From IMG/VR virus record IMGVR_UViG_2703719347_000008: 16,756 bases of DNA. One strand, 5' to 3'. The notes beneath the pieces are model-generated. The model made no database searches. It worked only from the letters and a program-made list of their open reading frames with translations, and had not been told where the DNA came from. Every line of letters begins with the position of its first letter. Within the stretch, counting starts at the first letter, position 1. Origin of the DNA: a virus. Taxonomy: Duplodnaviria > Heunggongvirae > Uroviricota > Caudoviricetes. Shown in pieces: positions 8,121-13,733 of this stretch. The position numbers and the translations under genes were made by a program.

Positions 8121-8699
8121 ATGATTAACCCGTCCGAGGTTGGAAAAGCTGGTGAAATGGTCAGGCTGAAAACGCTGGAGGCCATCTGGATTCAGGGGAA
8201 GCTGCGCATGTGGGGCCGCTGGTCTTACATCGGCGGCGGTAGTGGCGGCAATATGTTTAACCAGTTACTGGCTTCCGGGAAAGTCACTAAAACAGCCATC
8301 AACGAAGCATTACGCCGGATGAAGAAGTCTGGCATCTCGAAGCCTGAGCTTGAGGCGTTTTTTCGTGAAATACTCGCGGGGAAAAACAAAAGCGGCCTGG
8401 CCTTCTGTACAGACGATGAAGGACTGCTGATTGATAAGGTACTGGGGGCAGTCCTTATTACGGGTGGTCACAAAGAGCTGTATCACCTGCTGGTGGAGCA
8501 TTACCGGTTACGGAAGAGCAAACGCCGCATAGCGGAAGAGCTCTATGAAAAGCATCCTGACTGGTGCTTTATGACCTGTAGGAGAAGAGTTGATGCATGG
8601 ATAAGTTTGGCAGAATCGATGCTGTACGCACCAATGTGTGACGCATTCGGCACAAATCGCGACAGATTTTACTTGCAAAGTGAGCCAGAAACTGCTTGA
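8121..8699 (+). CDS. Q: Late-gene antiterminator Q (P22 gp23-like family)
   Basis: ATG at 8121 with GGAG 8 nt upstream (track ORF 7941 is an in-frame upstream extension overlapping DUF968); WGRW...CTDDEGLLID...YHLLVEHY resembles the WGAW...CCDDDAMII...LHDLLVDYY pattern of P22 gp23; sits just upstream of a terminator and the lysis cassette. Confidence 0.6.
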   Translation: MINPSEVGKAGEMVRLKTLEAIWIQGKLRMWGRWSYIGGGSGGNMFNQLLASGKVTKTAINEALRRMKKSGISKPELEAFFREILAGKNKSGLAFCTDDEGLLIDKVLGAVLITGGHKELYHLLVEHYRLRKSKRRIAEELYEKHPDWCFMTCRRRVDAWISLAESMLYAPMCDAFGTNRDRFYLQSEPETA

Positions 8700-8750: not shown

Positions 8751-8781
8751 AAACCCGCCAATGAGCGGGTTTTTTTATTTT
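8751..8781. terminator. Bidirectional rho-independent terminator (tR'-like for Q side; also terminates the convergent minus-strand gene)
   Basis: Stem ACCCGC (8753-8758) / GCGGGT (8765-8770) with 6-nt loop, flanked by an A-rich run upstream and TTTTTTATTTT (8771-8781) downstream; lies between the two convergent genes. Confidence 0.65.
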
Positions 8782-9371
8782 ACTAACTGAGCAATCATTG
8801 ATTGATAAGCACAATAGGAACCATAAGCAAATATGAAGATGGAACCGGCGCCGCATATACAAGCTACAGCATTTATTGTATGCCCGAGCCAAAGATAAAA
8901 TTTTTTGGTTCCAAGATATGATGATGCGAAGCAGCACTGTGAGAAATAGGATAAGCCCGAACAAAGTCCGGCCAGAACGACTCCTCCACAGAAAAGATAG
9001 AGAGCTGATGCGATAGCAGACGCAGCTTCAGCTGAGGAATTCTTGTTCCAAATATTTCCTAAAAAAGCCAACAGAGCGATTGCTGCACCTCCATTCATTA
9101 TTAGAAATGTTCTGCAAGCATTCGCACCAATACTGATAGCAGCTTTGAAAGACTCTATTTGAAAGCTATTTTCAATTTTCATTATTTCCAATTGGGTGGA
9201 GTTTTGATGTTTAATCCCTTCGAGAGTTAAAGCATTAGCCTCTGGCTGCTCTGTCACATCTATTTCTGAAAGATAGTGAAGTAAATTATCGACCGGGATG
9301 GTTTCTGAACCTTGTTGCTTTACATCACTTACATCTTTTTTGATCAATTCCAAAAGTTCTGAACTGGTCAT
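8775..9371 (-). CDS. Hypothetical membrane protein (N-terminal soluble domain, about 3 C-terminal TM helices); AT-rich moron
   Basis: ATG at 9371 preceded by GGAGCAAGAA (track's 9440 start is TTG with no Shine-Dalgarno); C-terminal hydrophobic stretches IALLAFLGNIW, ASALYLFCGGVVLAGL, AVACICGAGSIFIFAYG; about 35-40% GC by spot count of one 60-nt line against 55-60% in neighbours; antisense to the late transcript. Confidence 0.6.
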   Translation of the reverse strand: MTSSELLELIKKDVSDVKQQGSETIPVDNLLHYLSEIDVTEQPEANALTLEGIKHQNSTQLEIMKIENSFQIESFKAAISIGANACRTFLIMNGGAAIALLAFLGNIWNKNSSAEAASAIASALYLFCGGVVLAGLCSGLSYFSQCCFASSYLGTKKFYLWLGHTINAVACICGAGSIFIFAYGSYCAYQSMIAQLVK

Positions 9372-9500
9372 TTCTTGCTCCAGTGTTAAATCGAACGTAA
9401 AGATCCTAAGTATACCCTTAGAAGTACATACGGTATTCAAGTAAATAGAATTTATCTTTCCCCTCGATTGAGAGGACTCACAGCAAAAAGAGGGGGCTAA

Positions 9501-9896
9501 ATGTCCGATCCTGTTTCTGGCACAACGGTAGCTGCTGGCGGGCTGATGGGGGCCAGTATGTTCGGCCTTGCAACTGGCATTGATTATGGCGTGGTATTTG
9601 GTGCGTTCGCTGGGGCAGTGTTCTATGTCGCGACGGCGGTAAATATCAGCCGCCTAAAGCTGGTGGGCTACTTCATAACTTCATTCATCTTCGGTGTGAT
9701 TGGTGCTCCTCTGCTGGGGTCTTACTTCTCAAAGTGGACGGGGTACAGTGACAGGCCGCTTGATGCTCTCGGTGCTGTAATCGTTGCAGCAATAGCCATT
9801 AAATTGCTGACGTTCGTTAACAGTCAGGATCTGGGTAGCCTGTTTGGGATTCTCTCTCGCTTACGTGGAGGAGGGACAAGCAATGGTAACAAGTGA
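9501..9896 (+). CDS. Putative holin (multi-TM, Gly-rich)
   Basis: First gene after Q region; GAGGGGG Shine-Dalgarno; 131 aa with at least 3 hydrophobic helices and a charged C-terminal tail; immediately upstream of the endolysin. Confidence 0.55.
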   Translation: MSDPVSGTTVAAGGLMGASMFGLATGIDYGVVFGAFAGAVFYVATAVNISRLKLVGYFITSFIFGVIGAPLLGSYFSKWTGYSDRPLDALGAVIVAAIAIKLLTFVNSQDLGSLFGILSRLRGGGTSNGNK

Positions 9897-10164
9897 TCCG
9901 AGCGCAATCGTCAATGCGGTGATATGCGCTGTAATTGTTGGTGCGTTGATGTTCTACCGGCGCGACGGGTCAAGACACCGCCCCATGATATCGCTGATGG
10001 CTTACTTCACTGTGCTGGTTTATGCCAGCATCCCTTTCCGTTTCCTGTTTGGCTTGTACGAGTCATCCCACTGGCTGGTGGTACTGGCAAACATTCTTAT
10101 CTGCGGCGCGGTTCTCTGGTTCAGGGGGAATATAGCGCGTCTGGTTGATGCACTGAGGCACTAA
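9883..10164 (+). CDS. Second holin-like small membrane protein (holin/antiholin partner candidate)
   Basis: ATG at 9883 preceded by GGAGGAGGG; 93 aa with three hydrophobic segments; overlaps the first holin stop by 14 nt and its TAA overlaps the endolysin ATG (TAATG). Confidence 0.5.
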   Translation: MVTSDPSAIVNAVICAVIVGALMFYRRDGSRHRPMISLMAYFTVLVYASIPFRFLFGLYESSHWLVVLANILICGAVLWFRGNIARLVDALRH

Positions 10165-10793
10165 TGAATCAAACACAATTCCAGAAGGCGGCTGGTATCA
10201 GCGCCGGGTTAGCTGCGCGCTGGTTTCCGCACTTTACAGCCGCGATGAAAGAGTTTGGCATCACTTCCGCTATCGACCAGGCAATGTTCATTGCTCAGTG
10301 CGGCCATGAAAGCCTCGGGTTTAACAGGGTAGTGGAGAATTTCAACTACAGCATCGCCGGGCTTGCTGATTTTGTTCGTTACGGCAGGTTAACGCAGGAT
10401 CAGGCCAATTCCCTCGGGCGCAGCCAGTCGGAAACTGTGTTACCTCTGGAGCGCCAGCGGGCTATCGCCAACATTGTCTATAGCAAGCGGTTGGGTAACA
10501 GCAGGGCAACTGATGGATGGGTTTATAGAGGGCGCGGACTTATTCAAATAACCGGACTTTCTAATTACAGGGACTGCGGCAACGGGCTGAAGGTTGATCT
10601 GGTGGCACAGCCAGAATTACTGGAGCAGTCCTCCTACGCAGCCCGTAGTGCAGCATGGTTCTATGTCTCAAAAGGTTGCTTGAAATATCCGGGTGATCTT
10701 GTCCGGGTCACGAAGATTATAAACGGCGGACAAAACGGGATTAATAACCGGCGCGCTCGCTTCCTGAAAGCAAAATCGGTACTGGTGGTGTGA
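10164..10793 (+). CDS. Endolysin, glycoside hydrolase family 19 (chitinase class I-like lysozyme)
   Basis: FIAQCGHESLGF catalytic Glu region and YRGRGLIQITG motif are the GH19 signature; position within the lysis cassette. Confidence 0.85.
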   Translation: MNQTQFQKAAGISAGLAARWFPHFTAAMKEFGITSAIDQAMFIAQCGHESLGFNRVVENFNYSIAGLADFVRYGRLTQDQANSLGRSQSETVLPLERQRAIANIVYSKRLGNSRATDGWVYRGRGLIQITGLSNYRDCGNGLKVDLVAQPELLEQSSYAARSAAWFYVSKGCLKYPGDLVRVTKIINGGQNGINNRRARFLKAKSVLVV

Positions 10794-10794
10794 C

Positions 10795-11103
10795 ATGCAA
10801 CTGAAAATATGTGTGGTCGCTTTTGCGCTTCTTCTTTCTGCGTGTGATGCCAGCCCTGAACCTGCCAAATCGACTATGGCTGTATCATCCCAACTTTCTG
10901 CAGATGCAGACCGGATTAGCGTGACAAAAATGTCTGAGTTCCGCGATGGGCTTGCATATGGAAATTGGCGGGGTGTTTATCTCATTCAGGATAAGCAGAC
11001 CGGACAGGAATACATCGGTATCAGCGGTATTGGGATTTCCGAGGTAGGTTCGCATAGCCAGATGGTTGGCAAGGTTCCGCAATCAGTAAGGGATGAACGA
11101 TGA
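10795..11103 (+). CDS. Lipoprotein of unknown function in the lysis cassette (predicted inner-membrane retained)
   Basis: Signal peptide MQLKICVVAFALLLSAC with canonical lipobox L-S-A-C and Asp at +2 (CDAS); start is 2 nt after the endolysin stop; ATGA overlap with the next gene. Confidence 0.6.
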   Translation: MQLKICVVAFALLLSACDASPEPAKSTMAVSSQLSADADRISVTKMSEFRDGLAYGNWRGVYLIQDKQTGQEYIGISGIGISEVGSHSQMVGKVPQSVRDER

Positions 11104-11375
11104 GCTTAGAAATTATTGCTGGGCTGGTGGTCGTAATCCTGGGCACTATCGCTGGTGCATTCGGCATTGGTCACGCTCGCGGGACCAATAAGGCGGAAGC
11201 CAAAGCCGATCAGCAACGTACCGAAGAAAACGCCGCCGCCACCATCGCCGCGGCAGAACGTAAGGCGGAAGTTGTGAAAGGGGCCAGTAATGTACAGCAG
11301 ACTGTTAGCCATATGCCTGATGACGATGTTGATCGGGAGCTGCGCGAAAAGTTTACCCGCCCCGGTAGTCGTTGA
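11100..11375 (+). CDS. i-spanin-like protein (Rz-like; N-terminal TM plus charged periplasmic helix)
   Basis: N-terminal TM LEIIAGLVVVILGTIAGAFGIG followed by Ala/Lys/Glu-rich segment; 3' end overlapped in +1 frame by a lipoprotein gene, the classic Rz/Rz1 arrangement. Only 91 aa, shorter than typical Rz. Confidence 0.5.
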   Translation: MSLEIIAGLVVVILGTIAGAFGIGHARGTNKAEAKADQQRTEENAAATIAAAERKAEVVKGASNVQQTVSHMPDDDVDRELREKFTRPGSR

Positions 11376-11508
11376 TACGGCCTGCAGCTGGGTTCGCATT
11401 ATCTACCTGACCGACCACGATATCGACGTGCTGGATAGGCAGACCAAGCGCGACATTCTAACCCACAACAGAACAGTTAAAAGAAACTGTAACCAACTAA
11501 AAATGTGA
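11290..11508 (+). CDS. o-spanin-like outer-membrane lipoprotein (Rz1-like)
   Basis: Signal peptide with lipobox LIGSC followed by Ala at +2 (outer-membrane sorting), Pro-containing mature region with Cys residues; overlaps the i-spanin-like gene out of frame; AAAGGGG Shine-Dalgarno. Confidence 0.45.
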   Translation: MYSRLLAICLMTMLIGSCAKSLPAPVVVDTACSWVRIIYLTDHDIDVLDRQTKRDILTHNRTVKRNCNQLKM

Positions 11509-11598: not shown

Positions 11599-12213
11599 AT
11601 GGCTACTTACAAATATTATAATATACAGATGCTACCTCTAACCAATAGTAAAAAACATATTGGTAAAGAGGGTTATATTAAATTATTCCAGCATCTGGGA
11701 GACAAACTTCGCAAAGTTTTGTCATCGGAAGGTGATTTAAGAAATATCGCTGTTCCATTGAGGAATGATTTCTTTTTTGCTCCGTATGAAATAAATGCTA
11801 GAGAGGACATGGTTTATGGTCGTTTTTTAAAGTTTGACAAGGTAGATGTTGTTAGAAAAACTATTAGCAGAGTTCAGACTTATGCAGCTGGTTTTGGCGA
11901 GTCTAGTAAGATTTATGAGTATAGGTTTGTATTTGATCCTGTATTGCATATCCTTGCTATCGAAGATAGCCCTTCATTACCTAGCGCAAGTGTTTTATAT
12001 AAGGTGCTTAATGAGGTGTTTAAAGATGCGCGCAGGAAATTATATCCATCCTTTCGCATGAGTGTTGATGAATTAACATCTTCTGCTAGTCTAGATAATG
12101 TTATAAAAGAGTCTAAAGGATATTATTCCTTTAAAACAGAAATAACTTTCTCTAACTCTAATGATTTTATTGAAGGACTAGAAGAATTGCTAGAGGGGTT
12201 GAGGCTGAAATGA
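11599..12213 (+). CDS. Hypothetical cytoplasmic protein (204 aa), cassette gene A
   Basis: AT-rich ORF (about 28-30% GC by spot count of one 60-nt line); no Walker, HEPN, nuclease or HTH motif recognisable; stop overlaps the start of gene B (ATGA). Confidence 0.6.
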   Translation: MATYKYYNIQMLPLTNSKKHIGKEGYIKLFQHLGDKLRKVLSSEGDLRNIAVPLRNDFFFAPYEINAREDMVYGRFLKFDKVDVVRKTISRVQTYAAGFGESSKIYEYRFVFDPVLHILAIEDSPSLPSASVLYKVLNEVFKDARRKLYPSFRMSVDELTSSASLDNVIKESKGYYSFKTEITFSNSNDFIEGLEELLEGLRLK

Positions 12214-12533
12214 AAGATAAAGGGATTGATAAGCTGGAGCATAAAGAGTCATCAGACAAAGACTCAATAATGACTGACGTTAGTACAATCGCGTTGGTTT
12301 ATGCAGGTTTATCATGCAAGTTTGGGAATACTGAAATATCTTATAAAGACAAAAGCAATAAGAAAAAAGTTTTCAAAATGGCCGATTATCCTGTAAGAAA
12401 ACGTGTGTCTGAGTCTATGAAAAAAAGGGCATCAATTTTAGACTATTATTATGATGTGAAAAACACAATTAATGCAGCTAATAATGAGTCCAGAACAGGA
12501 AGTGGATTGCTAAAGAAAATTAGAAAAGGATAG
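12210..12533 (+). CDS. Hypothetical Lys-rich small protein (107 aa), cassette gene B
   Basis: GAGG Shine-Dalgarno; translationally coupled to genes A and C (1-nt gap to C); one short hydrophobic segment TIALVYAGLSCKF. Confidence 0.55.
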   Translation: MKDKGIDKLEHKESSDKDSIMTDVSTIALVYAGLSCKFGNTEISYKDKSNKKKVFKMADYPVRKRVSESMKKRASILDYYYDVKNTINAANNESRTGSGLLKKIRKG

Positions 12534-12534
12534 T

Positions 12535-13164
12535 ATGATGAAAGTTGGTGGATGGGACATTAATCATGAGAATATACTTAAAATAATTAAGTCTATTCCA
12601 TATGTTGGTGCAATTTTTATCATTGCCAACTTTTATGCTAATTCTGGAGTTTTATCAGAAAGGAAGCGAATTGCAAATTTCAAAAATTGGGTGCGGAGGG
12701 TACTTTCTGGTGTTTTATTTACTTTTGTTTTAAGTTTGTTGATTGTGACATTTTTCAGAGATGGGCTTTACAATCCCAACTCAAACACTGCAGGTCTCGA
12801 CGCAACCCTTGTTGCTTTATCCATATTTCCGAGCATATTAGGTTTTGGCATTGGTGTGTTTGTTGTTGTTTTTGCCCTTCCGAATCAATTCATTGAGAAA
12901 ATAAATCTTATCAAACATAACGGTAAAAATAAAACATTTGGCGCATCGTTAATGGTTGTCGATATGGCTTATCCTCTAATGGTATATGCTGTTGTCCTGA
13001 TGGGTGAGTTTTTTCTGAAACTATTCCAGGTTGGGTTTATTACACATGTGTTGAGTATCTTTTTATTATTATATGGAATGCTGATGACTTTTGATTTAAT
13101 ATCTATGATTTTCATGACAGCGTATGCGCTTTTAGCTACGCAAGCATCAAGAAACCCTAAATAG
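12535..13164 (+). CDS. Hypothetical polytopic membrane protein (about 5 TM), cassette gene C
   Basis: AAAGGA Shine-Dalgarno; five long hydrophobic segments, e.g. VLSGVLFTFVLSLLIVTFF and ITHVLSIFLLLYGMLMTFDLISMIF; no known motif. Confidence 0.65.
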   Translation: MMKVGGWDINHENILKIIKSIPYVGAIFIIANFYANSGVLSERKRIANFKNWVRRVLSGVLFTFVLSLLIVTFFRDGLYNPNSNTAGLDATLVALSIFPSILGFGIGVFVVVFALPNQFIEKINLIKHNGKNKTFGASLMVVDMAYPLMVYAVVLMGEFFLKLFQVGFITHVLSIFLLLYGMLMTFDLISMIFMTAYALLATQASRNPK

Positions 13165-13297
13165 TAGTATTTTTAGTTCGTTCTTTGGCTCAATGATTTT
13201 GTCGATACAGCAGCCAAGTTCGATAACTAAAGTAATCAATAGAGAATCTTTGCAGTGTGTCAATAAAACGTAGGAAAGGTAAGTTAAGGCACTGCAG

Positions 13298-13733
13298 TAT
13301 GCAAATACTGGTTGTTTGTGATATGTTTAACTACTTGCACACAATCAGGTCGTTAAATATGGGCGAATATATAAGCGCTACTATTACTGGATTATGGGAA
13401 TGCTATTTGTCATGGTCCAAACAGAATCGAGAGCTAACATTATCCAAGTTGGAAGCGCTATCAAATTTATTGATAGATAATCGGGCCTACCTGAGGGATT
13501 TCGCACACCAAGGTGTTAAAGACGCTCAAAGGGAACTTGAACTTGCAAAGGAGTGGAGGCGTGTCGGTCTCTTGTTTCAAGATATTTCTCCTGAGTTGTC
13601 AGACATATGTGAGAAGAAATCAGACTACTGGATATATTCAGAACGATATACCAAGCAGAAAGTTAATGAGCTAGGGATAACAATAAGAAATCTCGAACAT
13701 AAGCTAAGAATGGCAAAGAAAAACCTTCTATAG
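13298..13733 (+). CDS. Hypothetical helical protein (145 aa), cassette gene D
   Basis: Same strand and AT-rich composition as A-C; ATG at 13298 preferred (AAGG upstream) over the track's GTG at 13257; followed by a strong terminator. Start uncertain. Confidence 0.5.

Follow-up and report, generated by a model that had tools for sequence, protein, structure and literature searches.

A conserved phage lipoprotein with an inner-membrane retention signal encoded between the endolysin and spanin genes of an Escherichia coli prophage

Phages of Gram-negative bacteria usually lyse their hosts with a small set of parts, namely a holin/antiholin, an endolysin and a spanin. What, then, does a further gene contribute that is placed inside such a cassette? 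The question is raised by the IMG/VR record IMGVR_UViG_2703719347_000008, a stretch of 16,756 nucleotides (nt) which is called the window here and which is a lambdoid, HK97-like prophage adjoining icd in E. coli. At positions 10795-11103 on the plus strand, between the genes for an endolysin and for the inner-membrane spanin subunit (i-spanin), it contains an open reading frame (ORF) encoding a lipoprotein precursor of 102 amino acids, which belongs to the family phrog_16585 and is deposited in RefSeq as WP_042346304.1. A 100% identical gene is carried by 10 of 5426 complete E. coli genomes. We tentatively favour, at a probability of roughly 45%, the reading that the protein is an accessory envelope effector, which binds a conserved envelope component, works alone and merely rides on the lysis operon, rather than a core lysis protein or a lysis timer. 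Its localisation to the inner membrane, its late expression and its role as an envelope effector are what we infer from the evidence presented in the following.

The ORF at 10795-11103 is a real gene rather than a chance ORF, because it matches phrog_16585, belongs to a large family and is under purifying constraint. The match has an E-value of 2.2e-22 and covers residues 4-102, and the PHROG entry bears the label "unknown function". A profile built from ten diverse members retrieved 348 clusters at 90% identity, and an exhaustive HMMER scan retrieved 424 clusters at 50% identity (E <= 1e-3). The members are all ~90-130 residues long, are not fused to another domain and, where they are given a name, are nearly always called "hypothetical". 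For the mature protein of the close subfamily the ratio of non-synonymous to synonymous substitution rates (dN/dS) lies at 0.04-0.19, and the synonymous sites are saturated or nearly so.

At its N-terminus the protein is built like a lipoprotein precursor. The product starts with MQLKICVVAFALLLSAC followed directly by DASPEPAKS, and its signal peptide can be divided as MQLK-ICVVAFALL-LSAC, i.e., an n-region charged by Lys4, a hydrophobic core and the lipobox L14-S15-A16-C17, all within the first ~25 residues as in substrates of Lgt and LspA. The signal peptide (residues 1-16) together with the lipid-attachment residue Cys17 (10843-10845) occupies positions 10795-10845. In the alignment of 116 sequences from which the conservation figures were taken, Cys17 is kept in 115 and L14, the -3 residue, in 106. 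The +2 residue is Asp18 (10846-10848), and a lipoprotein with Asp at this position is kept in the inner membrane according to the established Lol-avoidance rule in E. coli. The pair C17-D18 is thus the sequence arrangement of an inner-membrane-retained lipoprotein, and the mature protein is probably anchored in the inner membrane on its periplasmic side. Both elements that the initial annotation had named, the canonical lipobox LLSAC and the Asp at +2, are present, and the Asp is shared by all 32 members of the subfamily defined by at least 60% identity, in which the remainder of the signal peptide and residue +3 (A, T, S, N, R) vary. Among members below 60% identity the +2 residue is D in 15, G in 14 and N in 4, with scattered others. 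Within this group the Drexlerviridae copies and the nin-region lambdoid copies in named enterobacterial phages have Asp, a Burkholderia jumbo phage and loci in Burkholderiales genomes have Gly or Asn, and the copy of a Serratia jumbo phage carries N-P-D. Considered by itself, the cassette of the window combines opposite sorting residues: the lipobox LIGSC of the outer-membrane spanin subunit (o-spanin) is followed by Ala (outer membrane) and the LLSAC of the additional lipoprotein by Asp (inner membrane), and one cassette therefore encodes two lipoproteins with opposite sorting signals.

Downstream of the sorting residue the protein is predicted to consist of two parts, a tether from A19 to D39 (10849-10911; ~21-22 residues), which is unstructured in the AlphaFold2 model and differs in both length and sequence from member to member, and an all-beta domain from R40 to R102 (10912-11100; ~60-63 residues), which is conserved in the alignment. 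The mean predicted local distance difference test (pLDDT) score of the model is 75; the core reaches block means of 73-89, residues 29-36 score below 50, and residues 15-40 are without secondary structure. It shows the signal helix, then the disordered stretch and then strands at 41-50, 58-66, 72-76, 80-91 and 94-101. A folded mature domain had been supposed from the beginning, and the structure prediction agrees in proposing a five-strand beta core at the block means stated. The family has the core motif R-[IFV]-x-V...F-x-D-x-L-A-Y...R-G-[IV]-Y-x-I-x-D-x-x-T-G-x-E-[YF]-[IV]-G-x-S-G-x-G-I-[ST]-E-x-G-x-H...G-K...D-E-R-COOH, in which R59, D66, S77, G78, G80 and D100 are invariant and E72, E83, H87, K93, E101 and R102 are near-invariant across phages of beta- and gamma-proteobacteria; the C-terminal tripeptide DER is present in 116 of 121 members. 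The first beta strand, R40-M46 (10912-10932; R-[IFV]-x-V-[TEV]-[RK]), bears a faint likeness to the consensus of a TonB box, on which we base no claim.

Such a pattern of conservation might be expected if the protein were a small enzyme or ligand-binding module of the periplasm that acts on peptidoglycan, a lipid or another conserved molecule of the envelope, with an active or binding site formed by the invariant Ser77/His87/Asp residues or by the acidic-basic DER at the C-terminus. The six invariant residues, a dN/dS of ~0.05 and the G-x-S-G-x-G motif speak for it, as does the name "secreted trypsin-like serine protease", given automatically to two members by the Joint Genome Institute (JGI). 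However, a beta domain of 60 residues is very small for a hydrolase, enzyme families and folds are not matched and the JGI names are uncurated, and we regard this explanation as quite unlikely. S77, H87 and D100 together with G-x-S-G-x-G (11023-11094) have a triad-like look only, from which no claim is derived.

The position of the gene is recurrent. In a survey of 66 IMG/VR loci, with neighbours counted on the same strand only, each of the 30 viral copies with at least 74% identity sits between an endolysin and an i-spanin gene. The upstream neighbour is an endolysin gene in 29 of 67 loci (21 phrog_7, 8 phrog_181) and the downstream neighbour encodes an Rz-like spanin in ~30 of 70. Three types of cassette can be distinguished. 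The first, to which the window belongs, combines a GH19 endolysin with a 91-residue phrog_1026 i-spanin (8 loci); the second has an R21-like signal-arrest-release (SAR) lysozyme, e.g., at locus L025 (N-terminus MNPTLRNKLVGAIVGGSGAITIAAVMLG), and the third a soluble PF00959 lysozyme, e.g., at locus L015, both followed by a lambda-type Rz (PF03245). The endolysin and spanin partners are non-homologous between these groups. The lipoproteins cluster by cassette type, at 82-100%, 80-85% and 74-77% identity to that of the window, which suggests a few transfers followed by vertical descent.

In the window the GH19 endolysin gene (10164-10793, plus strand; PF00182 E = 3e-8, phrog_181 E = 2e-84) ends with the stop codon TGA at 10791-10793, and the single base C10794 separates it from the ATG of the lipoprotein gene. 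The lipoprotein stop codon TGA at 11101-11103 overlaps the ATG of the i-spanin gene at 11100-11102 in the form of an ATGA. The close coupling on both sides claimed by the initial annotation is therefore real, and its "2 nt after stop" denotes an ATG two positions past the last base of the stop codon, with C10794 in between. Nearly all loci with at least 74% identity retain the ATGA overlap with the spanin gene, and L025 has a second one, from the endolysin gene onto the lipoprotein gene.

This strict placement is what makes a dedicated lysis modulator worth considering, i.e., an inner-membrane-tethered protein that tunes or restrains lysis until the holin triggers, or that helps in the last step, and whose targets may be the released or SAR endolysin, periplasmic parts of the holin or the complex of i- and o-spanin. 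All 30 of 30 loci with at least 74% identity have the gene exactly between endolysin and i-spanin, the spanin-side ATGA persists although the endolysins fall into three classes and the i-spanins into at least two families, and the gene appears co-transcribed with its neighbours and has no promoter of its own. Nevertheless, we consider a lysis modulator, the main rival of the accessory reading, somewhat unlikely. Its endolysin and spanin partners are non-homologous, and a specific protein-protein inhibitor is therefore unlikely; moreover, antiholin, lysozyme-inhibitor and spanin families are not matched. Two further observations that bear on it, the optional presence of the gene and the contexts of its distant relatives, are discussed below.

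How the gene is expressed can be judged from its surroundings. No sigma-70-like promoter or terminator was found adjoining the lipoprotein gene, and no promoter within the endolysin gene. The guanine-plus-cytosine (GC) content of the lipoprotein gene is 0.49, near the 0.53-0.55 of its flanks, and the gene differs in this from two evident low-GC insertions at other places of the window. Given the 1-nt spacer upstream and the ATGA overlap downstream, the simplest reading is that it belongs to the Q-dependent late transcript. The lack of a promoter-like site of its own and the probable coupling of its translation argue that the protein would be made in lytic growth alongside the lysis proteins. 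A moron in the strict sense was rejected as a description, since the gene has neither a promoter-like nor a terminator-like site beside it and is instead coupled to the adjoining genes; its only likeness to a moron is that it is optional and mobile.

The lipoprotein gene is an optional single-gene module. Sixteen related Klebsiella phage cassettes align with the window to either side of it, and the intervening span is 297-307 bp shorter in them, while the gene measures 309 bp. In KY271401 the endolysin stop codon is followed by 7 nt and then by the i-spanin ATG; its holins are 100% identical to those of the window, its endolysin is 65% and its spanins are 78-79% identical. Related cassettes with the same holins, the same endolysin family and spanins thus work without the lipoprotein, which speaks against a lysis modulator. 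A full-length copy with more than ~52% identity is absent from a collection of 50,697 phage genomes, and the lysis-cassette subfamily has so far been seen only in prophages and IMG/VR contigs. The initial annotation had called the gene an extra one, and the nearest cassettes in sequenced phages do run from the endolysin directly to the i-spanin. It had also called the arrangement atypical, which stands in so far as the gene is absent from the closest phage cassettes and falls in so far as the same order recurs in ~30 IMG/VR contigs with three endolysin types. As a separate observation, the endolysin gene at 10164-10793 is a mosaic when compared with that of Klebsiella phage 1 LV-2017 (L001, 2216-2845): the products are 65% identical overall and diverge after the first ~60 residues, while the holins are 100% identical, and the exchanged segment therefore seems to comprise the C-terminal two-thirds of the endolysin and the lipoprotein gene.

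More distant relatives, with 32-56% identity, share the invariant residues and are found in several settings outside lysis. Copies in the nin region, after replication genes, are present in Enterobacter phage vB_Ecl_MII_001, in Hafnia phage Pocitis76 and in a Salmonella prophage, and a copy in an Alysiella prophage lies between the large terminase and portal genes. The copies of the Drexlerviridae PaulSarasin (Bas09) and NBD2 are located among genes of unknown function with no annotated lysis gene within several kb, and those of jumbo phages of Serratia, Pectobacterium and Burkholderia in regions without an annotated lysis gene. The domain is thus found in jumbo phages as well as in siphoviruses and myoviruses, with beta- and gamma-proteobacteria as their hosts, and a scan of a genome collection with a strict pattern, which was used for host range only, gave 13 loci whose hosts include Enterobacter, Neisseriaceae (Snodgrassella, Alysiella) and several Burkholderiales. 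No conserved partner gene was found outside the lysis cassettes, where the neighbours are NinB, NinG, TerL, portal, primase and unknown proteins. These contexts argue against a lysis-specific job and weigh in particular against the lysis modulator.

The same domain in very different phages, with no partner gene and in operons that are inferred to be early, delayed-early or late, leads us to favour a lone envelope effector. According to this proposal the precursor would be exported and lipidated at Cys17, and Asp at +2 would keep the lipoprotein at the inner membrane on its periplasmic side, with the compact beta domain of 60 residues held in the periplasm by the flexible tether of ~22 residues. 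In the present prophage the late Q-dependent lysis operon would drive the gene, with translation probably by coupling. The domain would act alone on a conserved host envelope component during lytic growth, and as an accessory factor it may protect or condition the envelope of the infected cell, e.g., by blocking secondary infection or attack from outside; another candidate effect of the binding is a stabilisation of the envelope before the holin triggers.

Several points weigh against an accessory envelope effector. Function is tied to the family by neither experiment nor homology. Of the reading given in the initial annotation, the anatomy is upheld; the regulation of lysis timing and the periplasmic exclusion that it proposed are candidate roles. 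All copies with at least 74% identity lie inside lysis cassettes, usually with an ATGA to the spanin gene despite differing endolysin and spanin types, and this strict placement could reflect a functional tie to lysis instead of a convenient insertion site. Late expression is ill-suited to superinfection exclusion. The near-invariant polar residues and the dN/dS of ~0.05 are unusual for factors engaged in an arms race and equally fit an enzyme or ligand-binding module. Finally, Asp at +2 is not family-wide, as the jumbo phage of Serratia has N-P-D and the phages of Burkholderiales mostly have G, which could mean either that retention in the inner membrane is confined to a part of the family or that lipoproteins are sorted by other rules in those hosts. 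An unlikely but farther-reaching interpretation would place the protein in a previously unrecognised class of inner-membrane-tethered periplasmic effectors that phages of beta- and gamma-proteobacteria direct in lytic growth at one conserved envelope target and that have been recruited as an added lysis-cassette function in enterobacterial temperate phages. Within such a class the protein might restrain premature failure of the envelope, assist the last membrane step or act as a minimal enzyme that uses the invariant Ser/His/Asp residues and the C-terminal DER.

Two identities suggested by names or neighbourhood can be assessed more directly. The first is that of a GIY-YIG nuclease: the Prokaryotic Genome Annotation Pipeline (PGAP) of RefSeq gives WP_042346304.1 the name "GIY-YIG nuclease family protein" in two newer genomes, as against "hypothetical protein" in eight others. 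Apart from these two records, the pattern G60-V-Y-x10-Y73-I-G and a weak match to UzuA on the same hairpin speak for a nuclease. Yet PF01541 is not matched at E <= 10, while the domain of I-TevI, used as a control, scores 2.7e-19, and an hhalign comparison with the profile covers 19 columns only at a probability of 14.6%. A full GIY-YIG domain comprises ~80-100 residues, whereas here only 27 residues follow the "YIG", all of them predicted to be beta by AlphaFold2, and the helices with the catalytic Arg, Glu and Asn are therefore absent. The two Tyr positions are replaceable, the first being F in 12 of 116 sequences and the second F or W in 40 of 116, and the protein is predicted to be exported as a lipoprotein. 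We thus regard a nuclease as hardly credible, and the label is likely a false annotation triggered by the hairpin, which mimics GIY-x10-YIG.

The second identity is that of a divergent spanin component, be it an extra o-spanin, a unimolecular spanin (u-spanin) or an inner-membrane-retained protein of the Rz1 type, for which it may be said that the lipoprotein gene directly adjoins the spanin genes. The cassette, however, already contains a complete i/o-spanin pair downstream, the short i-spanin of 91 residues (11100-11375, plus strand; phrog_1026, Rz-like spanin, E = 6e-33) and the o-spanin lipoprotein, whose gene overlaps it (11290-11508, plus strand; phrog_1275, Rz-like spanin, E = 2.5e-32). 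These neighbours match their families strongly, and the lipoprotein matches no spanin PHROG. An o-spanin like Rz1 was rejected because the gene lies upstream of that for the i-spanin and the product has Asp at +2, in contrast to the Ala at +2 of the true o-spanin. A u-spanin like T1 gp11 was rejected because the protein, with its polar C-terminus (…VPQSVRDER) and its all-beta domain, has no C-terminal transmembrane segment. Homologues are moreover found far from lysis genes. Homology to a spanin, which the initial annotation had named as a refutation of its own reading, thus came out negative, and we consider a spanin component extremely improbable.

The lack of similarity extends beyond these two cases. 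In Pfam and NCBIfam no model was matched, the domain has no Pfam hit at E <= 10 and only DUF6491 appears, below threshold. A PADLOC search returned only the weak match to UzuA, of 20 residues on the GIY-like hairpin. A sequence-profile search of the PDB gave nothing under E = 0.79, and Foldseek against the PDB and BFVD gave no match at E <= 1e-3. Those named exclusion, Bor-type (PF06291), lysozyme-inhibitor (MliC/PliC, Ivy), Cor and Llp families that the libraries hold showed no profile or fold match, and antiholin families were not matched in library searches. A literature search using the identifiers of the family, inner-membrane phage lipoproteins, anti-spanins and lipoproteins of Drexlerviridae found no description of it in the library covered.

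Among known systems the family may be compared with several others. Llp of T5 and Cor of phi80, N15 and T1 are small stand-alone superinfection-exclusion lipoproteins of ~60-85 mature residues, which are rich in beta structure and expressed during lytic growth. Like them, the members of phrog_16585 are small lone phage lipoproteins that are proposed to act alone on a host envelope component. However, Llp and Cor reside in the outer membrane, plug the receptor FhuA, are usually encoded beside receptor-binding genes and are variable in sequence, whereas phrog_16585 has Asp at +2 in its enteric members, no linkage to tail genes and an extreme conservation, and no similarity in sequence or fold to any annotated exclusion family was found. 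Llp is summarised in a preprint (bioRxiv 10.64898/2026.03.26.714494). Rz1 is likewise a lipoprotein, and its gene adjoins that of the i-spanin within the lysis cassette, but it is a short proline-rich polypeptide in contrast to the folded beta domain predicted here, there is no homology and the cassette already has its spanin pair. The engineered imRz1 shows that a lipoprotein retained in the inner membrane can still engage lysis partners (PMC6139136).

A lysogenic-conversion factor comparable to Bor of lambda would be produced by the prophage to the advantage of the host, e.g., by serum or stress resistance. Bor is an optional prophage lipoprotein of ~100 residues encoded at the lysis end of the late operon. 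The lipoprotein studied here is likewise a small prophage lipoprotein encoded near lysis genes and is optional among related prophages. But Bor is located in the outer membrane and is made from its own promoter in lysogens, whereas here a promoter-like site upstream is lacking and the gene is coupled to late genes; the Lambda_Bor family PF06291 is not matched at E <= 1, and the family also has members in Drexlerviridae, which are strictly virulent, and in jumbo phages. A conversion factor therefore appears improbable.

Exclusion at or near the cytoplasmic membrane, by blocking incoming phage genomes or tail lysozymes, is exerted by Spackle and Imm of T4, SieA of P22 and Ltp of the Streptococcus phage TP-J34, all of which face the periplasm or the outer side of that membrane. 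Ltp is itself a membrane-anchored lipoprotein and resembles our protein in this respect. These factors differ in being expressed early or from the prophage, as opposed to the late expression expected here, and no relation in sequence or structure was detected. The junction between R and Rz of lambdoid phages tolerates genes unrelated to lysis, e.g., the Ant/Rha-like gene of Stx phages; these accessory genes encode cytoplasmic regulators and are unrelated to phrog_16585. Exclusion by SieA of P22 is described in PMC10883804. Altogether, the family is best filed with the small accessory phage lipoproteins such as Llp, Cor, Bor and Rz1, from which an inner-membrane signal, an extreme conservation and a recurrent position within lysis cassettes set it apart.

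The remainder of the lysis region contains two holin genes on the plus strand, one at 9501-9896 (PF16931, phrog_198; Pfam E = 5e-39) and one at 9844-10164 (PF05449, phrog_217, three transmembrane segments; Pfam E = 2e-18). With the TTG at 9844 as start of the second, the two holin ORFs overlap by 53 nt, while RefSeq places the start at 9883. Upstream of the holins and downstream of a Q-like antiterminator gene (DUF1133/Phage_antitermQ, 8121-8699) lies an antisense ORF at 8751-9440 (minus strand) of 221 residues (198 in RefSeq), which has a GC content of 38-43% and a hydrophobic C-terminal half and is bounded by a bidirectional hairpin terminator at 8751-8772; it has a classic moron architecture and no Pfam or PADLOC match. 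Between the o-spanin gene and the terminase region an island at 11599-13700 has a GC content of 33-36% compared with ~53% in its flanks. It contains a DUF4747 gene split into the overlapping ORFs 11599-12213 (profile positions 1-184) and 12210-12533 (191-255), which in other E. coli genomes is a single coding sequence of 261-280 residues, and an ORF at 12535-13164 of 209 residues with multiple transmembrane segments and no family match. The island looks like an insertion of the moron or defence type with a frameshift, and it has no PADLOC match.

What does this gene mean for the biology of these phages? A conserved and constrained gene at the endolysin-spanin junction that is combined with three unrelated endolysin types is a candidate for an added player in lysis. 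Should the product have no part in lysis, it would represent a novel type of periplasmic factor for exclusion or protection, with its anchor in the inner instead of the outer membrane. In databases the family is without a Pfam entry and bears the misleading label "GIY-YIG nuclease" in new RefSeq records, and even a functional result that is negative would set this annotation right. The extreme conservation of the family implies a conserved host target, and this target, if identified, could expose a vulnerability of the bacterial envelope.

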